Positions 17,874-47,215 of a stretch of 64,000 bases of DNA are shown piece by piece. Numbering within the stretch: position 1 is the stretch's first letter; each line of letters opens with the position of its first letter. The stretch comes from Nitrospiraceae bacterium (lineage in GTDB: Bacteria > Nitrospirota > Nitrospiria > Nitrospirales > Nitrospiraceae). The position numbers and the translations under genes were made by a program. The stretch spans positions 98,112 through 162,111 of the forward strand of contig JBFWWG010000011.1 in NCBI GenBank assembly GCA_050246315.1, given 5' to 3'. The notes under the pieces are model-generated. The model did not search any database, was not told the origin of the DNA, and worked only from the letters and a program-made list of their open reading frames with translations.

Positions 17874-17935
17874 CTCCGTCGGCGCGTCTTCAGCTCGTGC
17901 GGGAAGCGACGGCTTCCGTAGTCGCGGGCGCCGTC

Positions 17936-19482: not shown

Positions 19483-19492
19483 GAGCGGCCGC

Positions 19493-22709: not shown

Positions 22710-23284
22710 ACGAAGCGGATAGTGCGGCTGATGTGCAACAGAGCGACGTTGGAGAGAAGTTTTATGGCAAGTATCGGGGGACGGTCGTGAACAACCTCGA
22801 TCCCATGCAACTCGGTCGCATCCAGGTGATGGTGCCGGATGTGTTCGGCTTGTCGATTTCCAGTTGGGCCATGCCCTGTGTACCGATCGCCGGGAAGCAG
22901 CAGGGCATCTTCGTCCTTCCTCAGGTCGGCTCGGGCGTGTGGATCGAGTTCGAACAGGGGGAACCGGACTATCCCATTTGGGTCGGGGGGTTTTGGGGGA
23001 TTGCGGCGGAAGTCCCGGCTCTGGCGTTGGCGCCACCGCCCCCGCCCCCGGGACAGAACATCGTCATTCAAACGACCGGACAGAACACGCTCTTGTTGAG
23101 CGATGTGCCGGGGCCGACCGGCGGCATCATGCTTAAGACAATGACGGGCGCGATGATCCTGATGAATGACGTCGGGGTGACGATCAGCAACGGCAAGGGC
23201 GCCACGATCATGATGAACGGGCCGGCGATCACCATCACGGGTTCGCCGGTCACGATCAACAATGGCGCGCTGACCGTTCTGTGA
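22706..23284 (+). CDS. Spike protein, gp5/phage baseplate V OB-fold (VgrG C-terminal part)
   Basis: FYGKYRGTVVNNLDPMQLGRIQV, PQVGSGVWIEFEQGEPDYPIWVGGFW. Confidence 0.92.
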   Translation: MNEADSAADVQQSDVGEKFYGKYRGTVVNNLDPMQLGRIQVMVPDVFGLSISSWAMPCVPIAGKQQGIFVLPQVGSGVWIEFEQGEPDYPIWVGGFWGIAAEVPALALAPPPPPPGQNIVIQTTGQNTLLLSDVPGPTGGIMLKTMTGAMILMNDVGVTISNGKGATIMMNGPAITITGSPVTINNGALTVL

Positions 23285-23667: not shown

Positions 23668-24024
23668 ATGCCACTCGACTATCCCTTCCAATTCGACGGC
23701 AGCGGCCGCACGGCGATGACCGGCGAGACGGACCATGTGCGCGATCTGATCGAGCAGGTCTTGTTCACGGCCCCCGGCGAGCGGGTCAATCGTCCGACGT
23801 ACGGCAGCGGTCTCACACAACTGGTATTCGCCCCCAACAGCGATGCCTTGGCCGCAGCCACGCAGGTCAGTGTGCATGGCGCGCTGCAGCAATGGCTGGG
23901 GGATTTGCTGATGGTTGAAGGAGTGGAGGTGCTCCGCGAAGACGCGGCCCTGCGCGTGACCGTCCGGTATGTCGTGAGACAAACCCAGGAACGCCGAGCG
24001 GTAGAGGTGGTGCGGACGATATGA
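23668..24024 (+). CDS. GPW/gp25 baseplate protein (Afp9-like)
   Basis: LIEQVLFTAPGERVNRPTYGSGL. Confidence 0.93.
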   Translation: MPLDYPFQFDGSGRTAMTGETDHVRDLIEQVLFTAPGERVNRPTYGSGLTQLVFAPNSDALAAATQVSVHGALQQWLGDLLMVEGVEVLREDAALRVTVRYVVRQTQERRAVEVVRTI

Positions 24025-26579: not shown

Positions 26580-29275
26580 GCGAACCACTCGAACCAGGGC
26601 TGAGTCTGTGCGGCTGTTGCGAGGGCCTGACGCAGGCGACGCCCATCGAGGTCACCAATCGTCCCGGTCTTTCGGCGATCGGATATCGAGTCGGCACGCA
26701 CGGATCGTTCAAGACCGGCATGTTGGCTCGATTGACGGCAGGCAGCTCGATTCTGCAGTCGCTACGGACACGCCGCAACGACGATTTTTCCATCGGGCTC
26801 ATCGATGCCTGGGCGACGGTCCTGGATATTTTGACCTTTTATCAGGAGCGGCTGGCGAACGAATCCTATCTGTTCACGGCCACCGAACGACGATCGCTTC
26901 TGGAGCAGGCGCGGCTCATCGGCTATGAGCCGCGGCCCGGCGTCGCCGCGGGCACCTATCTCGCCTTTACCGTCGAGGAGACGGGTGTGGCCTCGTTACC
27001 GGGGGCTCCGCTCCCGCCGACGCCGTCTGGTCCCCGCGAGGTGATCGTCCCGAAGGGGACGAAGGTACAAAGCGTTCCCGGACCGGGCGAGACCGCCCAG
27101 ATGTACGAGACCATCGAGGACATGACGGCCCACGTCGACTGGAATAGTCTGCAACCGCGGCTGAGTCAGCCTCATCCCGTGCGTACGGACTTGGAACAGG
27201 TCACGGTGCGGGGACTCTCCCCCTTCGTGAAAGCCGGAGATATCCTGCTCATCGTGGCAGGGAGCGATCCGGATGACGAGAAGGTGAAACAGGTGCTCAG
27301 GGTGACGTCTGATCCGAAGGGTCAGACCACCACCTTCGATCTGGCGATGACCCCGGCACCCGTTCCCTGGATCAGACCGGTCCTGAGCTTCAGCCCGTTT
27401 GTCCGCACGGCTACGACGCTCGACAATGCCTTTGTCGAGACCGGATTGCTCGCGGGAACACGCTGGAATCAGCGCCTGCTGCTGTCCATGGCCAAGACCC
27501 ATCGCTGGTCGCGCGTGGCCTTGCAAAGGAGAATCAATCTCCCTCCGCTGAAGCCATTGCCTACCGATCCGGGCATCTTTGCATTTCGCGAGCGTGCCGC
27601 GCTCTTCGGTCACAACGCGCCCAAACATGCGTCGCTGCCCGCCGATCAAACGAAGTCCGGCGCTGTCTACGAAGAGAACTGGGAGGGAAGGACACTTCAA
27701 CAGGAGCAACCCCTCTCAGGCGAGGCGTATGTGTATCTGGACCGGACCTATCCGGGGATCGTGACGGGCAGTTGGGTGGTGCTCATGAGCCCAAATGCCG
27801 GACCGCGGATCTATCAAGTGCACGAAACGACGGATCTCACAAGGGCGGACTTCACGCTCACCGCCAAGGTGACGCGCATCCGAGTCGGCAGTTCGGAACA
27901 CTTCGAAGACTTTACCCTGCGGGACACGACCGTCTTTGTCGTGAGCGAACGGCTGGACTTGGCTCCGATCCCAATTCCGGATGTCGTGCAAGGAAATGAG
28001 GTGACGCTCAACGGGGCCTATCTCGGCCTTGAAGCGGGACGATGGGTCATCGTGACCGGGGAGCGCGATGATCTATCCGGCGTCACGGCCAGTGAAGTGC
28101 ACCGACTGGCCGATGTGACGCTCGAGGAAGGGTTGACGACGCTCACGTTGCAGTCGGCGCTGGCCCATCTCTACGTCCGCGCGACGGTCCGGGTCAGCGG
28201 CAACGTGGCGGCCGCCACGCACGGCGAGTCCCGGTCGGAGTTGCTCGGCTCGGGAGACGGCCGGCTGCCTTTCCAGCAATTCACGCTTCGCCAACCGCCG
28301 TTGACTTACATCAGCGCCCCGACGCCGAGCGGCGGACAGTCCACGCTCGAGGTCTGCGTCAACGATCAACTCTGGCAGGAGGTGGCGACGCTCTACGGGC
28401 AGGGACCGACCGATCACGTCTACGTCACGCGCAGGGACGACGACGGCAAGACCACGATCCAGTTCGGCGATGGCGTGACCGGGGCGCGTCTGCCGAGCGG
28501 CCTGCAGAATGTGCGCGCCGCCTATCGCCAGGGCATCGGCGCGGCGGGTCTCGTCAAGGCGAGTCAACTCACGTTGCTCATGACGAAGCCGACCGGCGTT
28601 CGCGATGTGACGAACCCGCTTGACGCGACCGGCGCGGCCGATCCCGAGGGGATCGAGGACATCAGACGCAATGCCGCGCTGACTCTTCGAACGCTGGACC
28701 GAATTGTATCCTTGCAGGATTACGAGGATTTCGCGGCCGCCTTCTCCGGCGTAAGTAAGGCGCTGGCCACCTCCACGTGGACGGGACGCCGCCGCGGCGT
28801 TCTGCTGACGGTGGCGGGGACCGATGGAGCGGTTGTCGAGGAGACCGGCGCGGTCTACACCAATCTCCTGCGCGCGATTCAGGAGAACGGAGACCCCCAG
28901 GTCCCGGTCCAGGTGGCGAGCTATCGGCCGGCGTTCTTCAAAGTGGCGGCCAAGATCACCGTAGCGTTCGGCTCCTCCCCGGAGATCGTCCTGGCCGGCG
29001 TGCAGGAGCAATTACGGGCCACCTTCTCGTTCTCCGCGCGTCAGTTCGGTCAACCGGTCGCGCTCAGCGAGGTGCTGTCCGTGATGCATTCGGTTCCCGG
29101 GGTGCAGGCCGTGCATGTCACGCAGTTGTATCGGATGGATGATCCGGCGGCGCCGTCGCTCCAAACCGAACTGCCGGCCATGGTGCCGCAGTCCGGCAGC
29201 GGTGCGGGCACTCTCGGCGCGGAATTGGTGACGCTCGATGCAAGCCCGTTGGTGGAGATCGGAGTGGCTTCATGA
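26576..29275 (+). CDS. Baseplate J-like wedge protein 2
   Basis: LTFYQERLANESYLFTA, IQFGDGVTGARLP, RIVSLQDYEDFA. Confidence 0.9.
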   Translation: MSEPLEPGLSLCGCCEGLTQATPIEVTNRPGLSAIGYRVGTHGSFKTGMLARLTAGSSILQSLRTRRNDDFSIGLIDAWATVLDILTFYQERLANESYLFTATERRSLLEQARLIGYEPRPGVAAGTYLAFTVEETGVASLPGAPLPPTPSGPREVIVPKGTKVQSVPGPGETAQMYETIEDMTAHVDWNSLQPRLSQPHPVRTDLEQVTVRGLSPFVKAGDILLIVAGSDPDDEKVKQVLRVTSDPKGQTTTFDLAMTPAPVPWIRPVLSFSPFVRTATTLDNAFVETGLLAGTRWNQRLLLSMAKTHRWSRVALQRRINLPPLKPLPTDPGIFAFRERAALFGHNAPKHASLPADQTKSGAVYEENWEGRTLQQEQPLSGEAYVYLDRTYPGIVTGSWVVLMSPNAGPRIYQVHETTDLTRADFTLTAKVTRIRVGSSEHFEDFTLRDTTVFVVSERLDLAPIPIPDVVQGNEVTLNGAYLGLEAGRWVIVTGERDDLSGVTASEVHRLADVTLEEGLTTLTLQSALAHLYVRATVRVSGNVAAATHGESRSELLGSGDGRLPFQQFTLRQPPLTYISAPTPSGGQSTLEVCVNDQLWQEVATLYGQGPTDHVYVTRRDDDGKTTIQFGDGVTGARLPSGLQNVRAAYRQGIGAAGLVKASQLTLLMTKPTGVRDVTNPLDATGAADPEGIEDIRRNAALTLRTLDRIVSLQDYEDFAAAFSGVSKALATSTWTGRRRGVLLTVAGTDGAVVEETGAVYTNLLRAIQENGDPQVPVQVASYRPAFFKVAAKITVAFGSSPEIVLAGVQEQLRATFSFSARQFGQPVALSEVLSVMHSVPGVQAVHVTQLYRMDDPAAPSLQTELPAMVPQSGSGAGTLGAELVTLDASPLVEIGVAS

Positions 29276-31428
29276 CGCTCGATGCCGACAAACTCTACGC
29301 CTTGCTCCCGTCGATCTATCGCATTCGCGATCAGGAGAAAGGAGAGCCGCTCAAGGCCTTCTTGGCCGTGCTCGCGGAGCAGGCCGAGGTCTTGGAAGAA
29401 GATCTGTCCCAGCTCTACGACGATCAGTTTATCGAGACCTGTGCCGAATGGGTCGTGCCCTACCTGGGCGATTTGATCGGGTATCGGCGGCTACGGGGTG
29501 CGTCCTCCTCCGACGATTCGTCGCGGGCCGAGGTGGCGAATACGATTGCCTATCGACGCCGGAAGGGAACGGTGTCGATGGTCGAGCAGTTGGCCTCGGA
29601 TGTGACGGGATGGAAGGCGCGGGCGGTGGAATACTTTCAGTATGTCTGCGCGACGCAATATCTGAATCATATCCGGCCGGCCCATCAGGCGGTGGCCGAC
29701 TTGCGCCGCCAACGACAGTTGATGTGGTCGCAGACTCCATTCAACTCGCTGCCTCGCACAGTCGATGTACGATGGATCGCAACCGGCCGAGGCCGGTACA
29801 ACCTTCCGAATGTCGGTCTGTTCCTGTGGCGGCTCCGCCCCTATCGTGTCGCCAAAGGGACCGCCAAGCTCGTCAAAGAAGGCTGTTTCACGTTTCACCC
29901 CCTCGGATCAGACATGCCGCTGTTCAATCCGGGTCAAGGAGAAGAGAGCCTTACCCGGCTGGCGGAACCGGTGCACGTACCCGATCCGCTCCGCCGGAGA
30001 CCCTTGTTCGACGAACTCGAAGAACTTCGCCAAAGTCTCGCGGATGGTCGCGCGGAAGCCGCGGCCACTCGTGCCTTGTCGTGGTTTGATCCGGCGCAAC
30101 CGGTGTTTCAGATATTCAAGAACGGGACGGCCGTTCCTGTGAAGGAGATTCTGATCTGCGATTTGACCGACTGGCAACGTCCGCCGGCCCGCCGGACCTA
30201 TCGACCTCGCGGAAAGCGGCCAGGCGATGCCACGCCAGATCCGCAACTGCCGATCCAACTCGCCGTCGATCCTGTACTCGGGCGTCTGGCCTTCCCCGCG
30301 AACGTCAATTTGGCGGGGGTGGTGGTCCAGGTGACTTATTCCTTCGGATTCAGCGGCGCCTTCGGCGGAGGACCCTATCCGACCGATTCCCTCCGTGCAC
30401 CCGTGACGCGTCGCGTGACGACGGGAGGCTCGACGCTGGCGCAGGCCTTGGCGGCGGTGGGGACTGCAGATGCCGTGATTCAGATCGATGACAGTGCCAC
30501 GATCGACGGAGATCTCACGATCATGCTGGGACCCGACCAGGATCTGACGATTCAAGGCAACGAAGGCACGCGCCCCGTACTGAACGGCACGATCACCGTT
30601 GTCAGCGCCGAAGAGGCGGAACTGACCTTGCACAATCTCATGTTCGCGAAATCGGTGCGGGTGACCGGCGCGGCAGAGACGACCCTCACGATCCGGCACT
30701 GTACGCTGGCCCCGGTCGAACTCGCGCAGGACCTGTCGATGAAACCGCGTCCGGAGCCGTCCGTTCGCTGGGTCGATGCCGGAAGCCATGGGACGCTGGT
30801 GATGGATCACACGCTCAGCGGCCGTCTGGTGACGAGCCCCGATGTGTCGGTGGGGCTGTTCGACAGCGCCGTCGATGCGCTCGCGGACACGGGGGTGGCC
30901 TTGGCTGCGGCCGACGGCGGTCAGATTGCAACGGGAGAGTTGCGGCTGGTTCGTACCACGGTCATCGGTACCATTCGTGTTCGGGCTCTTGAATTGGCGG
31001 AACAGGCTCTGGTGACCGGCGCTGTCATCAGCGACCAGCAACAGCATGGGTGTGTGCGCTTTTCGTATCTCCCGTCCGACTCCCGCGTTCCTCGCCGGTA
31101 TCGTTGTCAGCCGGAATGGGCGGTGCAACGAGCGAAAGATACGGCACAGCGGCGCGATCCATCGGTTGGACCCGATGTGCTTGCGCAACTGGACGCGCGC
31201 ATTCGATCGGCCTTGCGCCCGCTGTTCACCACGAGTCGATTCGGCGAGCCGGCCTATCTCCAGCTTCACGCGTCCTGTCCGGTAGAGATTCGGACGGGGG
31301 CCGAGGATGGGTCGGAAATGGGGCTCTTCCAGAGTGTGGGGCAGGCTCAGCGCGAGGCAAACGTCCGTGCGCGCATGGAGGAGTATCTTCGGTTCGGATT
31401 GGAAAGCGGCATCTTTTACGCGACGTAG
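29272..31428 (+). CDS. Phage tail protein I-like baseplate protein (Afp12-like)
   Basis: LYALLPSIYRIRD, WVVPYLGDLIG, RRKGT, GCVRFSY, GAEDGSEMG. Confidence 0.85.
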   Translation: MTLDADKLYALLPSIYRIRDQEKGEPLKAFLAVLAEQAEVLEEDLSQLYDDQFIETCAEWVVPYLGDLIGYRRLRGASSSDDSSRAEVANTIAYRRRKGTVSMVEQLASDVTGWKARAVEYFQYVCATQYLNHIRPAHQAVADLRRQRQLMWSQTPFNSLPRTVDVRWIATGRGRYNLPNVGLFLWRLRPYRVAKGTAKLVKEGCFTFHPLGSDMPLFNPGQGEESLTRLAEPVHVPDPLRRRPLFDELEELRQSLADGRAEAAATRALSWFDPAQPVFQIFKNGTAVPVKEILICDLTDWQRPPARRTYRPRGKRPGDATPDPQLPIQLAVDPVLGRLAFPANVNLAGVVVQVTYSFGFSGAFGGGPYPTDSLRAPVTRRVTTGGSTLAQALAAVGTADAVIQIDDSATIDGDLTIMLGPDQDLTIQGNEGTRPVLNGTITVVSAEEAELTLHNLMFAKSVRVTGAAETTLTIRHCTLAPVELAQDLSMKPRPEPSVRWVDAGSHGTLVMDHTLSGRLVTSPDVSVGLFDSAVDALADTGVALAAADGGQIATGELRLVRTTVIGTIRVRALELAEQALVTGAVISDQQQHGCVRFSYLPSDSRVPRRYRCQPEWAVQRAKDTAQRRDPSVGPDVLAQLDARIRSALRPLFTTSRFGEPAYLQLHASCPVEIRTGAEDGSEMGLFQSVGQAQREANVRARMEEYLRFGLESGIFYAT

Positions 31429-31480
31429 CCTGCTCGGCGATCGAACGGGACCAGACGCAGATAACGATAGGAGACCGGTC

Positions 31481-34207
31481 ATGAAAGGCGACTTCAGTCG
31501 GCAGACCTTCGCGCAGGGCAAGCATTACAGCGCCGTCCTCCTTCAGCAGGGACGGGTGCAGCTCGATGCGGATTGGAACGAATCGCAGGCGATCCACGAG
31601 CATCGCAGCGAGACCATGACGCGAGACGTGATCGGTTTATCCGGCGCCCCGACGATCGGGCCGGGCTTCCAGATTCAAGTCGGACAGGATGGCGTCAGTC
31701 TGCTGATCGGCCGCGGACGCTACTACATCGACGGCATTCTTTGCGAGAACGACGCGGATCTCAACTATGCCGCCCAACCAGACTTGCCAGGGGTTCGGAG
31801 TGTCGTCGACGTCCTGAAGGACGGCAATGCCGTCTTCGGCCTCGTCTATCTGGAAGTGTGGAGCCGACATCTCACGGCGTTGGACGACGCCGCCATGCGC
31901 GAATCGGCGTTGGGGGGACCGGATACGACTACACGGCTCAAGACGGTGTGGCAGGTGAAAGTGCTGCCCGTGAAGACGCCCGCGTCCGGTGTGGTCGGAC
32001 CGGAGACGTTTTTCGAGGAATGGACTCAGTTGCTCGCCTCTCCAACCGGCTTGCTCTCGGCGCGCGCGAAGCCGGTGGCCGCCGGCAATAACCCCTGCAT
32101 CATCCCTCCAAGCGCAGGCTATCGCGGTCTCGAGAACCAGTTGTATCGAGTGGAGATTCATAAGGGCGGGGTGTTGGGCGACCCGGCCAAAGTGCCGACA
32201 TTCAAGTGGTCCCGCGATAACGGCACCGTCGTTACGGCCATCGAACGCTTGAGCGGTCAGGAGGTGACCGTTCGGGACCTGGGGCCGGACGAGGTGCTCG
32301 GCTTTGCGAGCGGACAGTGGGTCGAGATTATCGACGATGCGGCGGAGCTGAATCGGCTTCCGGGCCAACTCATTCAAATCGACAGCGTCAATCGCGCCAC
32401 TCGGGTGATCAAGCTGGTCTCGGCTCCGACCGTGCGAGTCGATTCGGCGACGCATCCGAAGCTGCGCCGCTGGGACAGCGTCAACGAGATGGCCATCGCG
32501 GTCCCCAGCACGAACGAGGGGTTCCTGGCGCTGGAGAACGGGCTGGAGGTGAAGTTTTCCGGCGGAAGCTTCGTGACGGGAGATTATTGGCTCATTCCCG
32601 CGCGGACGGCCATCAATGGAGAGACAGGAACGATCGAATGGCCGTTCACCGCCCCGCAACTGCCGCATGGTTCCGAGCGGCACTTTTGTCGCCTGGCTCT
32701 GCTCCAGCGGAATCCTCAGACGAACACCCTCACGTCGATCGACGGCCGCAAGCTGTTTCTTCCCTTGACGGGAATCGGGGCGATGCACGTAGTAGGTACG
32801 AGCTGGCGTCACGACGACGTGATGACCCTTCAGGCCATCCAAGATACCGGCATCCAGATCACGCTGGATATGATCCCCTCCCACCCGTCGCGGGACGTGC
32901 CCGGCGCGCCGGACGCCATCAATCCCGGCACGATGATAGTCACGCTCGAAACGCCGGCGATCCCATCGACCGATGCCGCTGCGAATCCCCCTCGGGTCGA
33001 AACGATTCTCAGCGGGTCCATGACCGTGTCCAACAACAGCCTGGTCTGGAAACCCGATCTCCAGTCCTTCCTGAAATTGATGGAGGGGCCGCCGGCCTTG
33101 AGGGTCGTGCGCGTCACGCTCAAGGGTCACAAGATCTGGTCGTTTCAAGCGGGACAGATTTTCTACCTGGATGGGCAAGCGTTTGCCGGACCCGGGCTCC
33201 GGAGCGACGGTCAGACCCCGCGGACGGACCTGCTGTTTCCATCGGGGGCTGGAGTGCGGGCGAGCGATTTCGAGAGCTGGTTCTATTTGCCGGCGCAAAT
33301 CGTCCCGCCGCCGCCCAATCTCGTCGGGTTCACCGTGAATCCCAACATCCTGCAAGCCGGGCAAGCCGTCTCTCTCACCGTGACGCTGGATCGTGTTGCC
33401 CCGGCAGGCGGCGTAACCATCTCGATTGCCAAGACCATGCTCTCGGGGACGGATCCTGTTCCCTCCCTGGCGTCGATCACTATCGCGGAAGGGCAGGCCG
33501 TGGTGACGGTCGCTGTTCCAACAAGAGCGAACGTGGCGGCATCGCTCTCGCTCAAGGCGACCTTACGGCAGACGGAGCTGACGGCCAATTTGACCGTGCA
33601 GGTCGTCGCGATCACGATTGCGCCGTCGACCACGACTCTGTTCGTCAACGGCAGCGTGCAATTGACGGCCTCGGTGACCGGAGCGGCTCAGACCGGAGCG
33701 TCCTTTGCTATCACAGAGGGAGTTCGAGGCGGGGCTCTGGCTCTCACCGGGAAGAACACCGCCACCTATACCGCCTCCGTGGCGCAACCGGGGGTGTACC
33801 ACGTCGTCGCCACGAGTCTTGCCGATTCCACCAAGACCGCGGTCGCCACGATCACCGTGATTAAGAAGGTCAAGGACGGCAAGGAAGGGAAGGAACTGGT
33901 CAAGGAACAGTCCGAGGTCCCCAAGGCGATTCGTGACAACGTGGTGGTCAAAGCTCGGGAGGTCGTGACACCGAAGATTCGCGAGACGTCCAAGGTAACA
34001 GACGTGATTCGTTCCCGCGGTCTTGAGGGAGTATCCTCGACAGAGGAGTCAGGGGAGGAAGGCGGCGGAGCGGGCACGGAGGCATCCGGAGGGAAGGCCT
34101 TCATCAAACCGGAAGAACGGCCGCCGGTGGGGGAACCGCAGCGCGGAGCGCGCACGCCGTCGCGCCGAAAATCGAAACGGAAACCGAAGGCCGGGGGACC
34201 GGGGTGA
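31481..34207 (+). CDS. DUF6519-type eCIS tail fibre with Ig-like domains and K/E-rich C-terminal tail
   Basis: AGGAG RBS; MKGDFSR...QQGRVQLDADWNE, GYRGLENQLYRVEIH, FKWSRDNG, GDYWLIPART; Ig-like ITIAPSTTTL...ATITV. Confidence 0.88.
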   Translation: MKGDFSRQTFAQGKHYSAVLLQQGRVQLDADWNESQAIHEHRSETMTRDVIGLSGAPTIGPGFQIQVGQDGVSLLIGRGRYYIDGILCENDADLNYAAQPDLPGVRSVVDVLKDGNAVFGLVYLEVWSRHLTALDDAAMRESALGGPDTTTRLKTVWQVKVLPVKTPASGVVGPETFFEEWTQLLASPTGLLSARAKPVAAGNNPCIIPPSAGYRGLENQLYRVEIHKGGVLGDPAKVPTFKWSRDNGTVVTAIERLSGQEVTVRDLGPDEVLGFASGQWVEIIDDAAELNRLPGQLIQIDSVNRATRVIKLVSAPTVRVDSATHPKLRRWDSVNEMAIAVPSTNEGFLALENGLEVKFSGGSFVTGDYWLIPARTAINGETGTIEWPFTAPQLPHGSERHFCRLALLQRNPQTNTLTSIDGRKLFLPLTGIGAMHVVGTSWRHDDVMTLQAIQDTGIQITLDMIPSHPSRDVPGAPDAINPGTMIVTLETPAIPSTDAAANPPRVETILSGSMTVSNNSLVWKPDLQSFLKLMEGPPALRVVRVTLKGHKIWSFQAGQIFYLDGQAFAGPGLRSDGQTPRTDLLFPSGAGVRASDFESWFYLPAQIVPPPPNLVGFTVNPNILQAGQAVSLTVTLDRVAPAGGVTISIAKTMLSGTDPVPSLASITIAEGQAVVTVAVPTRANVAASLSLKATLRQTELTANLTVQVVAITIAPSTTTLFVNGSVQLTASVTGAAQTGASFAITEGVRGGALALTGKNTATYTASVAQPGVYHVVATSLADSTKTAVATITVIKKVKDGKEGKELVKEQSEVPKAIRDNVVVKAREVVTPKIRETSKVTDVIRSRGLEGVSSTEESGEEGGGAGTEASGGKAFIKPEERPPVGEPQRGARTPSRRKSKRKPKAGGPG

Positions 34208-34211
34208 TGGG

Positions 34212-34967
34212 GTGAATCCAGCTCGCTATGTGCTGGTGTTTGCACAAGCGAGTGACGAGGTCGCGGCCGGTTTTGTCAGGCGGAACGCCAGGCGCGCGGT
34301 CCGTCTGGTGACGCCTCGGGATCTCTCACGAGCGGGATGGCGGTACGAGGTCCGAGGTGGAGTGCCATCCGCCCAGGCCGTGGTTGAGGGACGGATTGTT
34401 CCGCAGAGCCGGCTTGCCGGAGTGATCACCAGGCTGGGATGTGTGACGGCGGCCGACGTGCCGCATATCGCGGCCAGCGATCGGGCCTATGTTGCGGCGG
34501 AGATGCAGGCGTTTCTCGCGGCCTGGCTCCATCTGGTCCCCTGTCCGATCCTCAATCGTCCCACACCGATGTGTTTGGCTGGGAACGCGTGGTCCTCTCA
34601 TAAGTGGGTCCAGACCGCCGTCCGATTGGGGATACCGGTGTCGCCCATCGAGCAGCGCGTCGATTGGAGTGCCCGTAGAGGGAAGCATGACCCGACGGTT
34701 CGAAGGGCGTCCACAAGTGATGTCACGATCGTGGGTCCTCGGGCAATCGGAACAGCCAGCTCCCGCCTGGTGCAACGGGCCCGAATGCTCACCCGTGCCG
34801 CGGGACTCGAGTTCGCGACCGTTCAATTCTCCACGATGTACGACGATGCGATATTTCTTGGTGTGTCTCTTTGGCCGGACCTTGCCGATGAACCGATCGC
34901 GGAAGCGATCTTGCGGTATCTGTGGAGGCAGTCACAGCAGATCCCAGGCATTGCGGCGACGGCATGA
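34212..34967 (+). CDS. Degenerate ATP-grasp-like protein
   Basis: DRAYVAAEMQAFLAAWL...ILNRP resembles MvdD/RimK-type N-terminal regions; lacks the E-x-N catalytic motif (FLGVSLWPD instead). Confidence 0.6.
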   Translation: MNPARYVLVFAQASDEVAAGFVRRNARRAVRLVTPRDLSRAGWRYEVRGGVPSAQAVVEGRIVPQSRLAGVITRLGCVTAADVPHIAASDRAYVAAEMQAFLAAWLHLVPCPILNRPTPMCLAGNAWSSHKWVQTAVRLGIPVSPIEQRVDWSARRGKHDPTVRRASTSDVTIVGPRAIGTASSRLVQRARMLTRAAGLEFATVQFSTMYDDAIFLGVSLWPDLADEPIAEAILRYLWRQSQQIPGIAATA

Positions 34968-35917
34968 TTCTCCTCTGGGGTCTTCACGAAGATGCTCCGC
35001 TCGGGGCCGTGTACCGCGTGCTTCAGGAGTGGGGCGCCCCTGTCTTCTTCCTCGATCAATACGAAGTGCTGGATTCGTCGCTGACGCTCCATGTGAGTGC
35101 TCATGCGGAGGGGGTGTTGCGCGTGGGCGCCCGCGACATTCGGCTGGAGGACATCTCGGCCGCCTATATCCGGCCCTATGATTCGGCCGGATTGCTCCGC
35201 GGGCCCGCCGCCCGTACCCGGTCGTCTCCATACCAGCACGCCGTCGAGTTCGATGCCTGCCTTTGGGGATGGCTGGATGTGACTCCCGCAGTGATCGTCA
35301 ATCCATTGGAAGCCATGGCCGGCAACCACTCCAAGCCGTTTCAGGCGGCGACCATCGAAGCCATGGGATTCGAGGTGCCCGAGACAATCGTGACGACGGA
35401 CAAGGAATTGGCGAAGAGTTTTTGGGAACGGCATGACGCCGTGGTCTACAAATCCGTGAGCGGGGTCCGGAGCATCGTTTCGCGGTTGACAGCGGAGCAT
35501 CGTGACCGTCTGGCCGATATCCAATGGTGCCCGACGCAGTTTCAGGCCTATGTGCCGGGGACGGATGTGCGGGTCCATGTGGTGGGGGATGACATCTTTG
35601 CCTGCGAAATTCTCTCCGATGCCGACGACTACCGGTATGCCGACTGCGAAGAAACTGAGACGAGGCTCCGGGCGTATTCGCTCCCGGCTGACTGTGCCGA
35701 TCGGTGCCTGAGACTGGCGGCCCACATGGGGTTGGTCCTGGCGGGTATCGATTTGCGGTGCACGCCTGACGGCCGCTGGTACTGCTTTGAAGTCAACCCG
35801 TCGCCGGGCTTCACCTACTTTCAGGAACAGACGCAGCATCCGATCGACCGTGCGATGGCACAACTCCTGATCGATGCGCCTCATCTGCCGGCTCATTGCC
35901 GAGCCATCGAAATGTAA
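34964..35917 (+). CDS. RimK/graspetide-maturase-like ATP-grasp ligase
   Basis: NHSKPFQ, GFEVPETIVT, VVYKSVSG, QFQAYVPGTDVRVHVVG, AGIDL, CFEVNPSPGF. Confidence 0.9.
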   Translation: MILLWGLHEDAPLGAVYRVLQEWGAPVFFLDQYEVLDSSLTLHVSAHAEGVLRVGARDIRLEDISAAYIRPYDSAGLLRGPAARTRSSPYQHAVEFDACLWGWLDVTPAVIVNPLEAMAGNHSKPFQAATIEAMGFEVPETIVTTDKELAKSFWERHDAVVYKSVSGVRSIVSRLTAEHRDRLADIQWCPTQFQAYVPGTDVRVHVVGDDIFACEILSDADDYRYADCEETETRLRAYSLPADCADRCLRLAAHMGLVLAGIDLRCTPDGRWYCFEVNPSPGFTYFQEQTQHPIDRAMAQLLIDAPHLPAHCRAIEM

Positions 35918-36327
35918 TTCCCTCCTCCATTTGTAATCCCGACTGCTGGAATTCACGACAGACGTTCATGATCGTGCCTCTGTCTGCGTATCCGATGAGA
36001 TACAGGCGTATTGCTTTGGATACAGGGTCATTGGCTCTGGACGAAAGTCCTTCTACGCGGTTCCGAAATCTCGTGACCGTTCAAGTCACACTCGTTGGCT
36101 CGATTGAAATTTGAACCCCTGCGCCTATGGCGAGACGAACGGCAGGAACAAGACTGCTGTGGAATAAGTTTTGCTAGCTAGGTGGTTCCTATCTCTTCGA
36201 ATCAAAACCGATTGGACATTCGAAAAGTCATAATTAGGTCTCGCGTTGTCGCGCCGAAGGGAGTAGACTTCCATCTGTTTTCGCCCGCCCACCCCATCAG
36301 GAATGTCCGGACAGGACATCGGCACCC

Positions 36328-37002
36328 ATGAGCGACCATGTGATTCGTGTCGGCATCCTGCATCGCCATCGTCTCCTGCGCGAAAGTCTGGCCTGTTATC
36401 TAGGACAGCGCGAGACGATCTCGGTTGTGTATTCGACATCCGGATGGGAGTTGGACGAAGCGGAGTTGGCTGCGCTCAATCCGAATGTGATTTTGCTCGA
36501 ATGTGACCCGGCTTCGCGAGAGCCGATGCAGGCGGCGAAACGGCTTCATGCCTCTGTCCCGGAGGCGAAACTGTTAATCATGGACGTGCCGGAGACCGAG
36601 ACCGATATCCTCTCCTGTATCGAGGACGCGCGCGCCTCGGGCTATCTGCTCCGGGATTCGTCGGCCGAAGACGTGCTGAGGGCGGTGCAGGCGCTGGCAA
36701 GGGGAGAAACGCTCTGTTCTCCCCGGATCGCCCATCTGTTGTTTTCACGAGTCTCTTCGTTGGCGCCGCGCGACCGCGGATCCGGTATCGACGACGACGC
36801 GGGCCTCACAAGACGGGAACGGGAGATCATCGGCTTGATCGAACGGGGGCTTTGCAACAAGGAGATCGCCGTCCATTTGTGTATCGAGGTGCAGACGGTC
36901 AAGAACCACGTCCACAATATCCTCGACAAGCTCCAGTTGCAGGATCGCCGGGAAGCCGCTCGCTACGCCAGGGAACGGGGTTTGGTGGGCAGGGGACATT
37001 AA
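36328..37002 (+). CDS. NarL/LuxR family response regulator with atypical receiver
   Basis: LTRREREIIGLIERGLCNKEIA...QTVKNHVHNILDKL LuxR HTH. Confidence 0.93.
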   Translation: MSDHVIRVGILHRHRLLRESLACYLGQRETISVVYSTSGWELDEAELAALNPNVILLECDPASREPMQAAKRLHASVPEAKLLIMDVPETETDILSCIEDARASGYLLRDSSAEDVLRAVQALARGETLCSPRIAHLLFSRVSSLAPRDRGSGIDDDAGLTRREREIIGLIERGLCNKEIAVHLCIEVQTVKNHVHNILDKLQLQDRREAARYARERGLVGRGH

Positions 37003-37087: not shown

Positions 37088-37972
37088 TCATCCGCGCTTG
37101 AATGCACGAATCATCGCCAGATCATGTTTGGCTGAGGCATAGTCGGTTCCATCTTGTTTGCCCAATGCAATTGCCCGTCGGATGAAGAACTCTGCCGCGT
37201 CGAGATCGCGTTCAAATATCAGTATGCTCCCCAGACCATTCAATGCCGAGTAATCGTTGGGGTTGCCAAAGAGTGCCTGGATGAACCAACGTTCAGCCCG
37301 TACGAGCAATCGGTCTTTGGGCGGACGGCCAGCCTGGATCGCCGCCCAATGCTTTAGCATGTACGCATTCTTGTCGTGATACCCTGCGAGGTTCAGCACC
37401 ATCGGTTCCAGCGGCCACATTTTCTTGGCATCAGACGTCACACTCTCGACCTGTCGATGCTTCTTCTTGCCTGTCCGAAGATCCCTGTTTCCCAGGCAAT
37501 CAGTCACGGCGCTTTGCCCCTCAACGATTCGCTGTGTCGTCTGCCGGAGTTCCCTGCTTGGACTGCTCATAACGGGCGGAACCTCGTTTGCCGCATCCGG
37601 AGACGTGCGAACGGCGCGGCAGAGCTGATCAATGGAAGCGGTGTTCCGGCGTTGCAGATTCACGTAAATCGTGTTCTGGAGGAAATAGGGTAACGGTGTG
37701 TGATCGCGCACACAGGTCACAATGAATCGGTTCAGATGAAAGGCGGTCAGCACTTCAGCCGCAACCCATCGAGATCTTGCCGCGGCCTTCGACCAGAGAA
37801 GGATCAGCACGCGGCTGCTCCTGATCGCACCGTGCAGTTCCTTTCGCAACAAGACTCCCAGGCGGATCTCTGAACGGTCCAACCAAACCTTGAGGCCGTC
37901 CTTCTCCAGGCGTGCTTCGATCTGGGCGGCCACCGCAGCGTCCTTCGAGGCGTGGCTTATGAACGCATCCAT
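37088..37972 (-). CDS. TIR domain (TIR_2) protein with C-terminal TPR
   Basis: AFISHASKD, VWLD, SRWVAAEV (catalytic Glu present); ALNGLGSIL...RRAIAL TPR. Confidence 0.88.
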   Translation of the reverse strand: MDAFISHASKDAAVAAQIEARLEKDGLKVWLDRSEIRLGVLLRKELHGAIRSSRVLILLWSKAAARSRWVAAEVLTAFHLNRFIVTCVRDHTPLPYFLQNTIYVNLQRRNTASIDQLCRAVRTSPDAANEVPPVMSSPSRELRQTTQRIVEGQSAVTDCLGNRDLRTGKKKHRQVESVTSDAKKMWPLEPMVLNLAGYHDKNAYMLKHWAAIQAGRPPKDRLLVRAERWFIQALFGNPNDYSALNGLGSILIFERDLDAAEFFIRRAIALGKQDGTDYASAKHDLAMIRAFKRG

Positions 37973-38103
37973 TTGGCGACTCTCCTCTGATTCACGGCTA
38001 CTCTCCTGCCTTTCGCGCGCGTAACAGTGCCGGGATTGATTTCGGTAACCTCGTGCCGAAAATGGTATGAGGCGACCTGCCCATGATCGTGGTCGCGGTC
38101 CTT

Positions 38104-39225
38104 TTACTCAAATCCCTGAAATTGCTCTGCGCGAAGTTTTTCTTTCGCCACGGCTTGGCCGACCCGCTGCAATTGGTCGATGTGCTCCACCGAGTCGAGC
38201 TTTTGGACGTCTTTCGGCTCGATGTCCGTGAGACCAAGGGCGTCGAGGCCGGTTCTGGAGAGTTCGGCGTTGTAGCGCATGTAGGTGAAGAGCTTGGGCG
38301 AGACCGCGCTGCGCGCCCCGATGAGATCGCCCACCTCTCGGTCGAGTGGATCGCCGGCCAGGCATTTGCCGAAGACACGGCACAACAGGTCTTGCTCATT
38401 CAGGGCGGCAAACATCAGCGCCGAAGGGATCGAGCCGGCGTTGTACAGGAGATTCATCTCTCCCGGCTCCAGATCCTTGTTGGCGTCGGGACTGGTCCCG
38501 GTGCCGACCGAAACAATGAGCATCTTATCTTCGCCGGCCGGCCAATTGAGGTTGTACGGTCCGGTTGTGGCCATGATGAACGATTGAAACGATGGATTGT
38601 TGTAGGGCGTAATGCCACCGTCGACGAAAATGAATTCCTGCTGGCCGACCTTGACGACTTCGGGCGGAAAGTAGACCGGCGCTGCCGTACTGGCACGGAC
38701 CAATTGCCAGAGGGGCAGGTTCAGATTGCAGTCCGTTCTCGCCCGATCGTTGTATTTGGCCTTGGGATTGTTCCAGATGGGCCAGGGCGAATCCGTGGTG
38801 GCATTGCGCATGACCATCATCAGGACTGTCCGTAGGCGGTCGCTCCCCAAGGTCGTATCGGCCCCGAGTTCTGCTTCCAGCTTATCGGCAAGGCCCTCGT
38901 CATCGTATTTGTACTTGAATCGCTTAAGCAGAAAGGCTTTGTCGAACATCTGGGCGCCGCTCGTGACATAAAAGTCTCGAATCCGGCTGACCGACATCCC
39001 GAGCGAGAGGCAGGCGGCCAGGATGGCGCCGGTGCTGGTGCCGGCGACAAAGTCAAAGTAATCGGCCAGCACGAAGTTCCGTTGCTTCTCGGGTTTCTGG
39101 AAGGAGCGTAGGAGGTCCTCGATGGCGCCGAGGATCTCCACCGTGATCATCCCGCGGATGCCGCCGCCGTCAAGCGCCAGAATCTTCTTGGGTCCCGGTT
39201 GCTGGATGCGTTCCGCCAGTGTCAT
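38104..39225 (-). CDS. Patatin-like phospholipase
   Basis: ILALDGGGIRG, GTSTG nucleophile, ASTAAPVYF, FVDGG. Confidence 0.95.
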   Translation of the reverse strand: MTLAERIQQPGPKKILALDGGGIRGMITVEILGAIEDLLRSFQKPEKQRNFVLADYFDFVAGTSTGAILAACLSLGMSVSRIRDFYVTSGAQMFDKAFLLKRFKYKYDDEGLADKLEAELGADTTLGSDRLRTVLMMVMRNATTDSPWPIWNNPKAKYNDRARTDCNLNLPLWQLVRASTAAPVYFPPEVVKVGQQEFIFVDGGITPYNNPSFQSFIMATTGPYNLNWPAGEDKMLIVSVGTGTSPDANKDLEPGEMNLLYNAGSIPSALMFAALNEQDLLCRVFGKCLAGDPLDREVGDLIGARSAVSPKLFTYMRYNAELSRTGLDALGLTDIEPKDVQKLDSVEHIDQLQRVGQAVAKEKLRAEQFQGFE

Positions 39226-39247
39226 GTCATTCCCCTTTCCGTCGGTG

Positions 39248-41242
39248 TCAGAAGCCGAACGCCTCGTTGGTATCGATGATGATCGTCTTGGCGCCTCGCG
39301 CTTTGGCCTGCTGGATCATGTCCTCGGTGCCGCCGGGGCCGTCGCCTTGTGCTCTATTCCAGAGGGCAATCAGCGTCACACGAGCCGCCCCTTTCGCCAG
39401 GGCATGGTAGAGCATCCACAGATTATTCCGATTCCAGATGGTGTACTTCTCCCTTGCCCGTAACCAGCGAGGAAGCTCCCTCGATTCTGCCAGCACGGTG
39501 ACCGGCAGCCGATCATGGAGAGAATTGAAACGATCCACCCACTCCGGGCCGGCGGATTGCACCGAGGCCACGACAAACTGATCTCGGGGCAGGGCGAGAT
39601 AGAGGCGGCTGGGAATGCCGAGTTCGCTGCACACTTCATGGAACAGGATGTCGCCGCCGGAGGCCCCTCCGGCGATGCCGAGCGCCACATGGCCCAGGCG
39701 CTGACGCTCTTGGGTCACGATCGCATGGATGCGCTGTCGAGCGATGGATTCTTTGTCCGCCGGAAAGCGAGGGGTGGCTCGACCGGGGTTGTCGATGCGG
39801 TGACCGGTAAAGAGCAACACGCCGCCGGACATGTGAGACACTGTGTGAGGGGGAGGCGCAGCCGGGAGCATCGAAAGAACCTTGGCGACATTGTCGTTGA
39901 ACAGGCCAAGGTCTTGGTAGAGGGTCAGTTGACTGCGAACGGCATCGACGGCGAAATCCGGCGCCCCGGCCAGCGCGTCCTGATAGGCGCTGGCCGCGCG
40001 GGCGGGTCGTGTGGTCGTCAGGCAACAGTGGTCGGCCTGGCTGATCTTGGCCCAGAGCAGTTGTTCTGTGTCTCCCTCACGTTGAAGTCGAGGCAAGGCG
40101 GCTTGCAGCGAAAAGGCCACGGTGTGACCGAGCGCCAATCTGTCCGCTTCGGCCTCAGCCAAGGCCCGTCGGGCGTCGTCGTCGCGGTCGAAGCGCTCGG
40201 CCCAGACGTCGGGGAGGGCGGTCGCCAGTCCGGTGAGGATGGCCGACAGCGCCAGCGCATTCAAGCCGGAATAGAAATGATTGAGGTCTTCGTGAAAGGC
40301 CCCGGAGTAGGCCTCCAAGGATTCCCGCAAGAAGGGAGAGCGGAGCGCCTCGGCCCGTCGTTGGTCCGGCGGGGCCGATTGCCAGAGGCTGCGCCAGCGT
40401 TCCTTGGCATTTCGGCCGAGCAGCGCATGAATCTCGGCCCGGTCCCAGCCCCGGAGCCGAGCGGATTGCAGCGCGCGCTGAATCGCTTGGTCTGACCGAG
40501 CGAGGTCGTTGAGACGCTGATACACCGTGGCCAACTGCACATTGGCCTCCAAGTCCAATGGATCGATCTTGCGAATGGCTTCCCAGGTTTCTCTCGCGCC
40601 CTCGAAGGCCTTCAATTTGAATTGCGCCCGTCCGACGACACGCAGGCCTTCGTACTCCCATTCCAGGCCCGAGACTTCCGAAGCCAGGAGTTCGAGGTCT
40701 CCCGGGACTTTGGCGGCGAGCGCACGATCGACCTCTTCGCGGAAGTCCCGTGGAACAGGCAGAAAGTGGGACCGATCTTGCTCCGTGAGGCCGGGCAACA
40801 GATTGAACACGGGGCTGTCCGGCGCTTCGGACTCGAGGGTTTGTCGTAGGGCGGCCACAAGCAGATCCATCTTGGCGGCGGGAGCCTTGGCGTCGTAGGT
40901 GAAGTATCGATCCGTTTGAAGGTCGAACGGGTAGCGGTCGCCCTCCGCGCGGATGAGAAACGTCCGCTTGTGGCGCAAGGCATGACGGATGCCGAGTTCG
41001 TAGAACACATTGGCATTGTGGATGGAGAGGTCGGCGACGACGAGGTCGGCCGTCAAGAGTCGCTGGAACATATCTACCCGGATGTTGCCCTGCCGAAGGA
41101 TGTCGAGGGTGGTACGCCCATCCACCCCGCATTGCGAGAGGGCCGGAGCGATCAACTCCCGCTCGATCACATCGAAGTCGATCGGTTCCTTAGCGAGGGT
41201 TTCTTTGAGTCCGAAGGGACGAATGATAAACGCGCGCATCAC
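39248..41242 (-). CDS. DUF4071 (deoxyribohydrolase-like/TRAF-binding) + TPR + SLOG-like domain protein
   Basis: AFIIRPFG, ADLVVADLSIHNANVFYELGIRHA, FYSGLNAL; C-terminal LLFTGHRID, GGASGGDILFHE, ALWN...GPGGTEDM. Confidence 0.8.
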   Translation of the reverse strand: MMRAFIIRPFGLKETLAKEPIDFDVIERELIAPALSQCGVDGRTTLDILRQGNIRVDMFQRLLTADLVVADLSIHNANVFYELGIRHALRHKRTFLIRAEGDRYPFDLQTDRYFTYDAKAPAAKMDLLVAALRQTLESEAPDSPVFNLLPGLTEQDRSHFLPVPRDFREEVDRALAAKVPGDLELLASEVSGLEWEYEGLRVVGRAQFKLKAFEGARETWEAIRKIDPLDLEANVQLATVYQRLNDLARSDQAIQRALQSARLRGWDRAEIHALLGRNAKERWRSLWQSAPPDQRRAEALRSPFLRESLEAYSGAFHEDLNHFYSGLNALALSAILTGLATALPDVWAERFDRDDDARRALAEAEADRLALGHTVAFSLQAALPRLQREGDTEQLLWAKISQADHCCLTTTRPARAASAYQDALAGAPDFAVDAVRSQLTLYQDLGLFNDNVAKVLSMLPAAPPPHTVSHMSGGVLLFTGHRIDNPGRATPRFPADKESIARQRIHAIVTQERQRLGHVALGIAGGASGGDILFHEVCSELGIPSRLYLALPRDQFVVASVQSAGPEWVDRFNSLHDRLPVTVLAESRELPRWLRAREKYTIWNRNNLWMLYHALAKGAARVTLIALWNRAQGDGPGGTEDMIQQAKARGAKTIIIDTNEAFGF

Positions 41243-41272
41243 CGGTCTCCTTGAGTGTGGCGTCCCGTTAGT

Positions 41273-41305
41273 CCGTTCGCCCTGAGCCGGTCGAAGGGCG
41301 AACGG
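41273..41305. repeat. REP-like palindrome
   Basis: ccgttcgccct-gagccggtcga-agggcgaacgg; related to the internal palindrome of the 49.5-kb element. Confidence 0.65.
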
Positions 41306-41377
41306 ATTATCACGGGACTTTCAGGGATAGAGCACGAGTGTACTGCGTCTGACGTTTCCTTACCTTCATTCCAAGAC

Positions 41378-41513
41378 CGTCATTCCCGGGCCGCTGTTCG
41401 TCATTCTCGCGCCCCTGTTCGTCATTCCCGCGAATGCGGGAATCCAGGTCAGAAAAGCGGAAATCCAGATTATAAAAAAGACCGCGCGGATTCCGGCTCA
41501 AGCCCGGAATGAC
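41378..41513. repeat. GTCATTCCCG-type palindromic repeat cluster
   Basis: Three cgtcattc units at 21-bp spacing, cgtcattcccgcgaatgcgggaatcc, and a distal inverted ggattccggctcaagcccggaatgac. Confidence 0.7.
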
Positions 41514-41549
41514 AATGAAAGCCAAGGACCCAGTTGAGGCGGCGTTGCC

Positions 41550-45886: not shown

Positions 45887-46200
45887 TGAGGAGGCAGACT
45901 GTCGGCTGACTATACCCGGATCGGAAAGACCGAGGCAACGTGCGCCAGCACCTGTATCGAGTCGGATACGGTCAGCGTATCGGAAAAGATACGGCGCACT
46001 CGATCGGGCTCCATGAGGAATCATGCGTTTGTGCGGAGTTTCCAGGCGCCATCTTGTGGCCGGGCGTTTGCAGGATTATCCTTTCAGGTGATCTCACCGG
46101 TGACATCGCCTGCACGGACGGATCATCCGAGGACGTCCAGGTGCTACGGTGTTTCCCGCGCCAATCCCGATACGCAGGTGCGTCCAGAAAGGGAAAAGTC

Positions 46201-47151: not shown

Positions 47152-47215
47152 CGGCCGGCCTGCCGCCGGTCGTTGAATGAGTCACCCGCTTTCACTCTTG
47201 CGCAGGAGGACCGCC

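Follow-up and report, generated by a model that had tools for sequence, protein, structure and literature searches.

A conserved C-terminal tag links an eCIS tail fibre and unrelated proteins to a gene pair of a candidate ATP-grasp ligase and its truncated paralogue

Two catalogues of ATP-grasp ligases, both compiled without experiments, already list the enzyme family considered here. Makarova et al. (2022; PMC8939145) set it apart as 'branch 8', for which no precursors were predicted in a search limited to proteins of at most 150 amino acids (aa), peptidase-derived substrates were proposed and a truncated, inactive ATP-grasp was noted in the loci; the branch 8 rows of their table, which include 319-aa ATP-grasps of Lyngbya PCC 8106 and L. 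aestuarii BL J, are marked 'Iyer', and Iyer et al. 2009 may describe the family. Carter et al. (2026; PMC13097080) list an uncharacterised 'group 32' with 'diverse families of neighbouring proteases'. Neither catalogue ties the family to an extracellular contractile injection system (eCIS) or sees a C-terminal tag on large proteins. Here we describe a member of this family in a stretch of 64,000 nucleotides from a Nitrospiraceae bacterium (assembly GCA_050246315.1, contig JBFWWG010000011.1, positions 98,112 to 162,111), hereafter the window, in which an eCIS tail-fibre gene is followed by two genes, A and B: gene B looks like a graspetide-synthetase-type ligase, gene A resembles a truncated paralogue of it, and the fibre carries near its C-terminus a short conserved tag. 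A first-pass annotation had been made from the sequence; the family itself is not novel, being already present in both catalogues. What appears to be new is the recognition of clients by a C-terminal tag and the tie to an eCIS tail fibre. A full-text literature search returned no paper that joins ATP-grasp with contractile injection or eCIS, RimK with contractile injection, or graspetide with tail fiber.

The fibre gene (31481..34207, + strand; 908 aa) matches Pfam DUF6519 (E 1.5e-68) and encodes an Ig-like middle and a tagged C-terminal tail. Its open reading frame (ORF) extends over 31307-34207, and the preferred start, the ATG at 31481, is where homologues begin. DUF6519 has been named eBAP5 and is counted among the five domains that, at the N-terminus of eCIS tail fibres, serve as baseplate anchors (PMC12923769), and it is this definition, together with the DUF6519 match, that justifies calling the carrier a tail fibre. 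The gene follows two Baseplate_J genes and a Tail_P2_I gene directly, and sheath, tube, Pvc16_N, AAA and DUF4157 genes in the same window supply the operon markers of an eCIS. The fibre stop codon (TGA, 34205-34207) is separated by four nucleotides (34208-34211) from the GTG start of gene A at 34212 (34212..34967, + strand; 251 aa), and the TGA stop of gene A (34965-34967) overlaps the ATG of gene B at 34964 in an ATGA (34964-34967); gene B (34964..35917, + strand; 317 aa) ends at 35917. The short gap and the overlap noted in the first-pass annotation are thus borne out by direct reading of the window sequence, and fibre, A and B form one module, the last three genes of the eCIS structural operon.

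The fibre tail, read from 33863 as KKVKDGKEGKELVKEQSEVPKAIRDNVVVKAREVVTPKIRETSKVTD, begins with a Lys/Glu/Asp-rich segment (KKVKDGKEGKE...KVTD; 33863..34003, + strand), a candidate crosslink core or charged spacer, and continues into a Gly/Glu/Ser-rich linker (34004..34090, + strand) whose length and composition vary among carriers. The conserved tag GKAFIKPEERPPVG (34091..34132, + strand), which we propose as a docking ('follower') element for the A/B pair, contains FIKPEERPPVG at exactly 34100-34132, and is followed by a basic C-terminal end EPQRGARTPSRRKSKRKPKAGGPG (RRKSKRKPK...; 34133..34204, + strand) that is conserved in the Nitrospiraceae clade and variable elsewhere; the protein ends in KAGGPG. 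The K/E/D-rich tail, the Gly/Glu linker and the FIKPEERPPVG motif had all been recognised before and are confirmed from the sequence. Their placement behind a 'last Ig domain' is weakly supported: the Big_3_5 match of the fibre (E 0.0046) falls below the cut-off, whereas homologous segments of two archaeal carriers (L006 and L010) match Big_2/I-set. The tail matches no Pfam or NCBIfam family.

Comparison of homologous loci reveals that the tag accompanies the gene pair. The loci are the best 80 of at least 582 confirmed places in a scan of species-representative genomes, and they come from Nitrospirota, Acidobacteriota, Cyanobacteriota, Actinomycetota, Chloroflexota, Pseudomonadota, Myxococcota and archaea. 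Gene A adjoins gene B in all 80 (tblastn). The search pattern F[IV]...[ED]RP, by which F, [IV], [ED], R and P were demanded beforehand, is matched just before A and on A's strand in 75 of the 80 loci, and elsewhere in the locus in L018; L009 and L030 have a degenerate FIGxxxRA form, L072 is cut off at a contig end, and L059 has a truncated A and no tag. The association exceeds chance, unrelated six-frame matches numbering only four across all 80 loci. From 76 distinct segments (76 carriers and the window tail, two of them identical) the consensus is G(56)-x-[AS](65)-F-I(75)-x-x-x-E(75)-R-P-x-V(67)-G(63), counts in brackets, and the family form of the tag can be written G-[RQEK]-[AS]-F-I-x-x-[EDQ]-E-R-P-x-V-G. 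It lies 5-98 residues from the carrier C-terminus. The motif and the Lys/acid-rich tail accompany homologous pairs across phyla, as the first-pass annotation had anticipated.

The carriers are mutually unrelated by family, yet they commonly end in the tag. They include DUF6519 fibres, Kelch proteins (L031, L034, L044 and L071), Big_2/I-set proteins, a tyrosinase (L027), an ILEI-domain protein and cyanobacterial proteins (250-330 aa) that contain a beta-rich domain and belong to no family; an AlphaFold2 model of one such cyanobacterial carrier has a beta-rich N-domain (predicted local distance difference test, pLDDT, 60-87) for which Foldseek gave no usable match in the PDB (template modelling score, TM, 0.10-0.20; pore-forming toxins and others). 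At the lower extreme stand ORFs of 41-42 aa that contain little beyond the tag between Lys-rich ends (L035, 9146-9271; L048, 9149-9271; L065, 9146-9271). These end at the start of gene A; in each, a Lys/Arg-rich N-terminus leads into the tag, behind which comes a short basic end. The B proteins of the three loci form one well-supported clade (100% in the Shimodaira–Hasegawa-like approximate likelihood ratio test), and the ORFs would be the smallest natural clients. In 22 of the 80 loci, from Nitrospirota, Acidobacteriota, Pseudomonadota and Chloroflexota, fibre, A and B follow one another in this order with short gaps, and eCIS account for about a quarter to a third of the loci, the others tagging unrelated proteins or 41-aa peptides. 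The archaeal carriers of L006 and L010 have only the Ig-like part in common with the window fibre; L010 is flanked upstream by baseplate genes and downstream by DUF4157 genes, and L006, whose contig is short, shows a single DUF4157-like match on the downstream side. L008 also lies in an eCIS context, and L040, L042 and L054 have an AAA match only. On a tree of gene B, the eCIS-linked rows require six changes of carrier class, of which well-supported branches force only one.

Nine non-eCIS loci were checked for further conserved neighbours, and none was found, nor a shared protease or exporter; the module thus consists of carrier, A and B. Gene order within it varies: B-carrier-A in L011 (10001-12354), A-B-carrier in L018 (9300-12321), and carrier and A on the strand opposite B in L074 (10001-12268), the trio staying together despite the changes. 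In L054, tandem tagged ORFs at 297 and 2430 precede one A/B pair with two copies of GRAFIRExERPQVG, and a single pair can apparently serve several clients. The tag is not an eCIS-specific feature, given the unrelated carriers and the eCIS share of the loci. Because the same tag-plus-pair module occurs on many unrelated proteins, the fibre is merely one client: tag and pair are a portable protein-tagging system, and the fibre is not its raison d'être.

Gene B is related to the enzymes that mature graspetides. Against NCBIfam its best match is TIGR04187 (ATP-grasp ribosomal peptide maturase; E 6.3e-44, residues 6-302 of 317), at 150.4 bits compared with a curated cut-off of 350, so that gene B is best placed, from its sequence, on a separate branch of the graspetide-synthetase clade and not as a strict TIGR04187 member. 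Other NCBIfam matches are MvdD (4.9e-27), MvdC (9.7e-24) and rimK_fam (5.7e-13), and Pfam recognises a RimK domain alone, weakly (E 3.2e-7). A profile built from 22 homologues and searched against the PDB retrieved PsnB (6e-32), CdnC (1e-29), MdnC (1e-28), PruB (5e-25) and RimK (3e-9). MvdD-like enzymes typically have a pre-ATP-grasp N-domain, which gene B matches from end to end, and the full-length maturase match is better than that to ATP-grasps of primary metabolism. The comparison of MvdC/MvdD with RimK proposed in the first-pass annotation therefore places gene B nearer the graspetide maturases, and a RimK-like reading was discarded on the relative scores (TIGR04187 versus rimK_fam; PsnB versus RimK). 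Nor are the closest relatives and the substrate those of a RimK-type glutamate ligase, the fibre ending in KAGGPG and not in an acidic C-terminus. K163, Q192, Q194, D201, R203, D263, R265, E276 and N278 are invariant in the 22 sequences and align with PsnB positions that we take to be the ATP/Mg site of the ATP-grasp fold; on this basis gene B looks catalytically competent. The family is large: among 8000 scored candidates, 5320 proteins are relatives at E <= 0.001, and the best 120 are all at least 52% identical.

By comparison, gene A matches no Pfam or NCBIfam family and is recognisable at the level of fold. Its AlphaFold2 model, computed from an alignment of 30 homologues (pLDDT 91.1; predicted template modelling score, pTM, 0.86), retrieved PruB 9bou first in Foldseek (E 1.7e-9, TM 0.71), then MdnB, AMdnB, CdnC, MdnC and PsnB, with RimK lower, the fold match covering part of each target only. 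In profile-profile comparison (hhalign), gene A aligns with gene B at a probability of 94%, and it has no equivalent of B residues ~143-195, the central domain with YKSxSG and CPTQFQ, and Q/G/S opposite D263/E276/N278 of B. Gene A thus has neither the central lid domain nor the Mg-binding acidic residues of a complete ATP-grasp and, on sequence and model, is to be regarded as a truncated, catalytically dead paralogue, a pseudo-enzyme. Because it has invariant residues of its own, among them S39, G42, W43, R91, Y93, E97, F101 and N115, we propose a conserved non-catalytic role for it, as a recognition or partner subunit. Of the two ATP-grasp genes announced by the first-pass annotation, one is accordingly recognisable by sequence and the other resembles a ligase in fold only, and the 'ligase pair' becomes one apparently active enzyme with one truncated pseudo-enzyme.

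A predicted complex places the tag between these two proteins. Gene A, gene B and the last 114 fibre residues were modelled together, each chain with its own alignment, in three runs. The median interaction prediction score from aligned errors (ipSAE) was 0.84 and the best of three controls 0.00, the ipSAE mark having been calibrated with a set-up different from these own alignments and three chains (116 of 157 solved complexes attain it, as do 2 of 215 mismatched pairs). Agreement between runs extends to at least 60% of contacts, with a partner pLDDT of 47-48. The confidently contacting tail residues are 73, 76-81, 83, 85-87 and 89, in the tag, and 23-37 (IRDNVVVKAREVVTP); those of gene A are 39, 76-79, 85-99 and 120-128, including the invariant S39, Y93 and E97, and those of gene B are 72-73, 97-101, 115, 119, 162-164, 168-173 and 182-191, in the central domain. 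Tag residues 76-81, 83, 85-87 and 89 touch A 85-97 as well as B 162-164 and 182-191. The modelling of ligases and tail suggested in the first-pass annotation therefore docks the motif on the A/B pair, and the predicted binding supports a tag seated between A and B. Synthetases of the PsnB, CdnC and MdnC type bind the leader with their central domain, and it is in the corresponding domain of B that the contacts 162-191 lie.

The tail next to the tag differs in composition from the remainder of the carriers. Over the 100 aa that precede the tag, Lys reaches 11.4% compared with 3.3% elsewhere, and Asp+Glu 16.1% compared with 9.7%; a 30-aa window with at least 50% K/D/E is present in 51 of 76 carriers. 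The pooled ratio K/(K+R) amounts to 0.77 for the tail against 0.36 for the body; all 66 carriers whose body spans at least 100 aa have the higher value in the tail, a pattern that shows selection for Lys over Arg there. Because this preference persists in G+C-rich genomes, e.g., the window genome at ~62% G+C, it argues that the amine matters in the tail, beyond mere charge. Compared with shuffled sequences, acidic residues are enriched at +1, +3 and +4 from Lys and depleted at +2. In 20 cyanobacterial carriers of 46-89% identity, K201, K204, E205, K207, E209, K211 and E212 are invariant or nearly so, and they sit in a region predicted to be disordered (AlphaFold2 model of L013). The locus thus has the parts of a graspetide system, namely an adjacent precursor, a recognition sequence and a core with Lys/Ser/Thr and Asp/Glu; two traits are atypical, namely the position of the recognition sequence behind the core and a precursor that in most cases is a large protein.

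A sample of 401 Nitrospirota genomes, of which 27 have DUF6519 and 16 a relative of B at E <= 1e-30, served as a negative control. DUF6519 and B stand side by side in the window genome only. Of the other 26 DUF6519 fibre genes with their downstream regions, none has A, B or a same-strand tag, and one has an unrelated opposite-strand match. By comparison, three of four pair-bearing regions away from a fibre in the same sample have a tagged ORF directly upstream of A: L138 has SFITPEERPPVG in a 503-aa ORF; L139 (G333:C79:4000-13500) has tandem carriers at 4058 and 5616 with HFIGPELRPDL and HFIKPELRPDL; and L140, whose length and feature layout are identical to those of L008 and which is apparently the same contig, has a tagged ORF before A. 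In L141 the pattern is unmatched at the pair. Judged from these genomes, tag and pair go together, and the fibre family by itself predicts neither.

The genome of the window contains a second, paralogous ATP-grasp pair (L081; contig C14:58000-74000, - strand, ~4010-12990), with A' of 339 aa (TIGR04187 E 5.5e-12) and B' of 299 aa (E 3e-38; 44% identical to gene B). The pair is followed by a PqqD-family protein that bears a variant tag, MSRQPFITAELRPDL (PFITAELRPDL), at its N-terminus, and further by a 44-aa ORF, an HPr-kinase-like gene, FA_hydroxylase and NTP_transf_5; on the upstream side are an ABC transporter and Transglut_core3. This region looks like a separate cluster for a peptide that is made by the ribosome and modified after translation (RiPP), with the tag on a chaperone.

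The tag also permits comparison with the published catalogues. The branch 8 rows of Lyngbya PCC 8106 and L. aestuarii BL J correspond to our loci L077 and L080 (PMC8939145), and some group-32 precursors carry FIRPEERP or HFIxxxLRPDL behind K/E(D) repeats (PMC13097080). By common genomes, protein lengths, the truncated partner and the tag in group-32 rows, the gene B family is, as far as the sequences indicate, branch 8 and group 32. Unrelated small ORFs make up many of the group-32 'precursors', and a fragment of gene A is listed as another; for Nostoc sp. PA-18-2419 (L013), the listed precursor differs from the tagged 294-aa protein (PMC13097080). Because several precursors are not the tagged neighbour, the group-32 list is unreliable as a record of substrates.

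Taken together, these observations are best read, on sequence comparison and modelling, as the first-pass annotation had in essence put it, with the fibre tip as an embedded RiPP-like substrate and FIxPEERP as the docking element; co-occurrence of tag and pair, the affinity of gene B to graspetide maturases and the docking model all point this way. In this scheme the tag, G-x-[AS]-F-I-x-x-x-E-R-P-x-V-G near the fibre C-terminus, would act as a recognition sequence behind the core, that is, as a natural 'follower', and would dock in a groove to which A contributes a conserved helix and B its central domain. At the expense of ATP, B would then activate Asp/Glu side chains and couple these to Lys side chains, and the resulting isopeptide (omega-amide) links would form in the flexible Lys/Asp/Glu-rich tail, in the cytoplasm and before particle release, leaving the distal tail stapled, stiffer and protease-resistant. 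We lean, with moderate confidence, towards a tag that acts as a follower-type docking element at the A/B interface while B makes Lys-Asp/Glu side-chain amides in the adjacent tail; the covalent bond, the residues joined and the effect on the fibre are what we infer. The more general proposal is tentative and has, in our judgement, somewhat less than an even chance: that a 14-residue C-terminal follower, or 'grasp-tag', recruits a heteromeric ligase of active and pseudo ATP-grasp subunits to staple or crosslink Lys and Asp/Glu of full-size folded proteins, and that the eCIS fibre tip would be covalently stapled or inter-chain crosslinked.

Several points weigh against a tail crosslinked next to its tag. 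A strongly K/D/E-rich window is missing from 25 of the 76 carriers. In the 41-42-aa peptides acidic residues are nearly confined to the tag and the positions adjoining it (with one further in L065), and one published group-32 sequence, from Ktedonobacter, has no Lys at all (PMC13097080); for these, the reaction would have to draw on the Glu within the tag, or on Ser/Thr esters. The score of gene B stays below the curated TIGR04187 cut-off. In the complex, the Mg-site residues of gene B are absent from the confident contacts, so that the model does not name the modified residue, and since solved synthetase-leader complexes exist, the high ipSAE may in part reflect likeness to them; the difference from the calibration set-up adds to this caution. 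The RNA-library contigs described below may include DNA and prove neither transcription nor a single transcript.

The peptides in particular would suit a different chemistry, in which the tag is itself the reactive site: B would activate the Glu of E-R-P, or an acidic neighbour, and join it to a Lys in trans, giving covalent oligomers or attachment instead of internal staples, with another chain of the fibre trimer, another carrier copy or another protein as a possible Lys donor. Glu at +5 in 75 of 76 tags agrees with this, although [ED] was demanded by the search pattern, as do the near-confinement of acids in the 41-42-aa peptides to the tag and its surroundings (one more in L065) with Lys-rich ends flanking, the Lys/Arg-rich ends behind the tag in many carriers, and the fact that carriers have nothing else in common, as a general ligation tag would predict. 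However, the Glu is not universal, a related sub-family having Leu or Gln there (HFIxxxLRPDL, PFITAELRPDL); no nucleophile position near the tag is conserved; and the variant tag at the N-terminus of the PqqD-type chaperone in the same genome fits docking better. We hold a reactive tag to be unlikely, though it is the main rival reading. That chaperone could equally be cited for docking without any chemistry on the carrier, with A/B as an assembly or folding factor or a particle passenger, or with a tag that regulates an enzyme whose substrate lies elsewhere; the modelling covers binding alone, and Makarova et al. found no branch 8 precursor and suggested substrates encoded elsewhere (PMC8939145). 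Such an arrangement makes it hard to explain why 41-42-aa ORFs that are nearly tag only are conserved before the pair in three loci, unless the peptide is the product; the preference for Lys over Arg beside the tag in 66 of 66 carriers points to Lys chemistry, and the genome has a single tag of this type. Docking alone is improbable in our view.

We give markedly little credence to gene B as a RimK- or tubulin-type glutamylase that would add free amino acids, e.g., Glu, to the tail and form no crosslink: Pfam names a RimK domain only (E 3.2e-7) and RimK-family models do match, but RiPP-maturase models and solved graspetide synthetases score far better, the MvdD-like pre-ATP-grasp N-domain is matched whole-length in B, and the fibre end, KAGGPG, is not acidic. 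Finally, A and B might have nothing to do with the fibre and stand only by accident at the end of its operon, as the 26 of 27 Nitrospirota genomes whose DUF6519 fibres lack an adjacent pair might suggest. The recurrence of fibre-A-B in 22 of 80 loci from four phyla and the presence of the tag exactly where the pair is present already contradict a chance neighbourhood at the level of sequence, and we regard it as extremely improbable.

The module closes an eCIS-type operon that is complete on the + strand of the 64-kb window, as annotated with Pfam and NCBIfam: family matches identify Sheath (3000-4586), Tube (4599-5117), Pvc16_N (6742-8049), an AAA ATPase (8046-10070), five DUF4157/eCIS_core proteins (10908-20524), a VgrG-type OB protein (22706-23284), two Baseplate_J genes (24021-29275) and Tail_P2_I (29272-31428). 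A promoter and terminator scan of 33500-36500 gave counts within chance. RNA-library contigs from two studies (P7 and P1), identical to the window, span both junctions of the module: fibre-A is bridged by X15 (P7; 33257-34947), X16 (P7; 33398-34337) and X17 (P1; 34068-34537), and A-B by X16 (34698-34990) and X17 (34883-35201). The part of gene B at 35704-35917 is uncovered, which is no evidence of absence, and the contigs are merely compatible with co-expression of fibre, A and B. The five DUF4157/eCIS_core paralogues stand in a row (10908-20524, + strand), one with a weak Aspzincin_M35 match and with a CpXC protein among them, and are probably the cargo or effector set of this eCIS. Just past the operon, a defence-island-like set (37088-43445, - strand) comprises TIR_2, a patatin-like phospholipase, a TPR-S sensor and DUF4062-TPR; a LuxR-type regulator (36328-37002) and the TIR gene are kept beside the operon in L001 and L047. 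A CHAT-domain protease-like protein is encoded upstream of the sheath gene (55-2250, + strand), and a DNA/RNA non-specific endonuclease followed by a subtilase with a P-domain at 45940-49348 (+ strand).

The data indicate that the client of a branch 8 enzyme is the protein encoded next to the pair on its upstream side, irrespective of size or family, and that a C-terminal tag marks it. If this is true, it would answer what the precursors of ATP-grasp branch 8 are, would extend graspetide chemistry beyond small secreted peptides to natural full-size proteins, and would add to it a natural 'follower' and a pseudo-enzyme partner. A fibre tip stapled or crosslinked in this way would also be the first enzymatic post-translational maturation of a fibre of a contractile injection system. 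Since eCIS fibres determine target binding, an enzyme-matured tip would add a layer of particle maturation, and heterologous production of such eCIS particles would require two additional genes. Protein stapling or ligation could gain a tool in a short tag that is served by a ligase of its own.

Among characterised systems, CorA/CorB resembles this one in a TIGR04187-type synthetase that makes Lys-Asp (K-x-x-x-D) isopeptide rings, repeated along a precursor of ~22 kDa (PMC13097080). As described there, it is distinct from A/B in its 2-oxoglutarate oxygenase and beta-lactamase partners, in its different repeat, in lacking a pseudo-ATP-grasp, an FIxxEERP tag and a structural-protein carrier, and in its restriction to Corallococcus. 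MyxF processively forms tandem K-x-x-E lactams, a precedent for the chemistry proposed here, and MyxD2, an ATP-grasp devoid of leader recognition, works only with partner ATP-grasps; unlike here, MyxF, MyxD1 and MyxD2 act on a small microviridin-type peptide with an N-terminal PFFxRFx leader, have full-length partners and yield a protease inhibitor (PMC12848669). A recognition sequence behind the core has a precedent in ThfB, reported to be still active with an engineered leader placed there (PMC13003496). In structure, PsnB, CdnC and MdnC are the best solved matches of gene B (6e-32 to 1e-28) and share the fold of gene A; unlike A/B they are homodimers that use N-terminal leaders and make mostly ester rings on small secreted peptides. 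RimK shares with the proposed system the ATP-grasp fold and a full-size protein substrate, and is a weak match to gene B (E 3e-9 compared with 6e-32 for PsnB). RimK adds free Glu to an acidic C-terminus, and the fibre has no such end. Within the Nitrospirota sample, DUF6519 fibres in general (26 of 27 genomes) are without tag and adjacent pair, unlike the fibre of the window. In the eBAP5 catalogue, whose main text does not contain the term 'ATP-grasp', the window fibre would be a conforming member, placed after the baseplate genes (PMC12923769).

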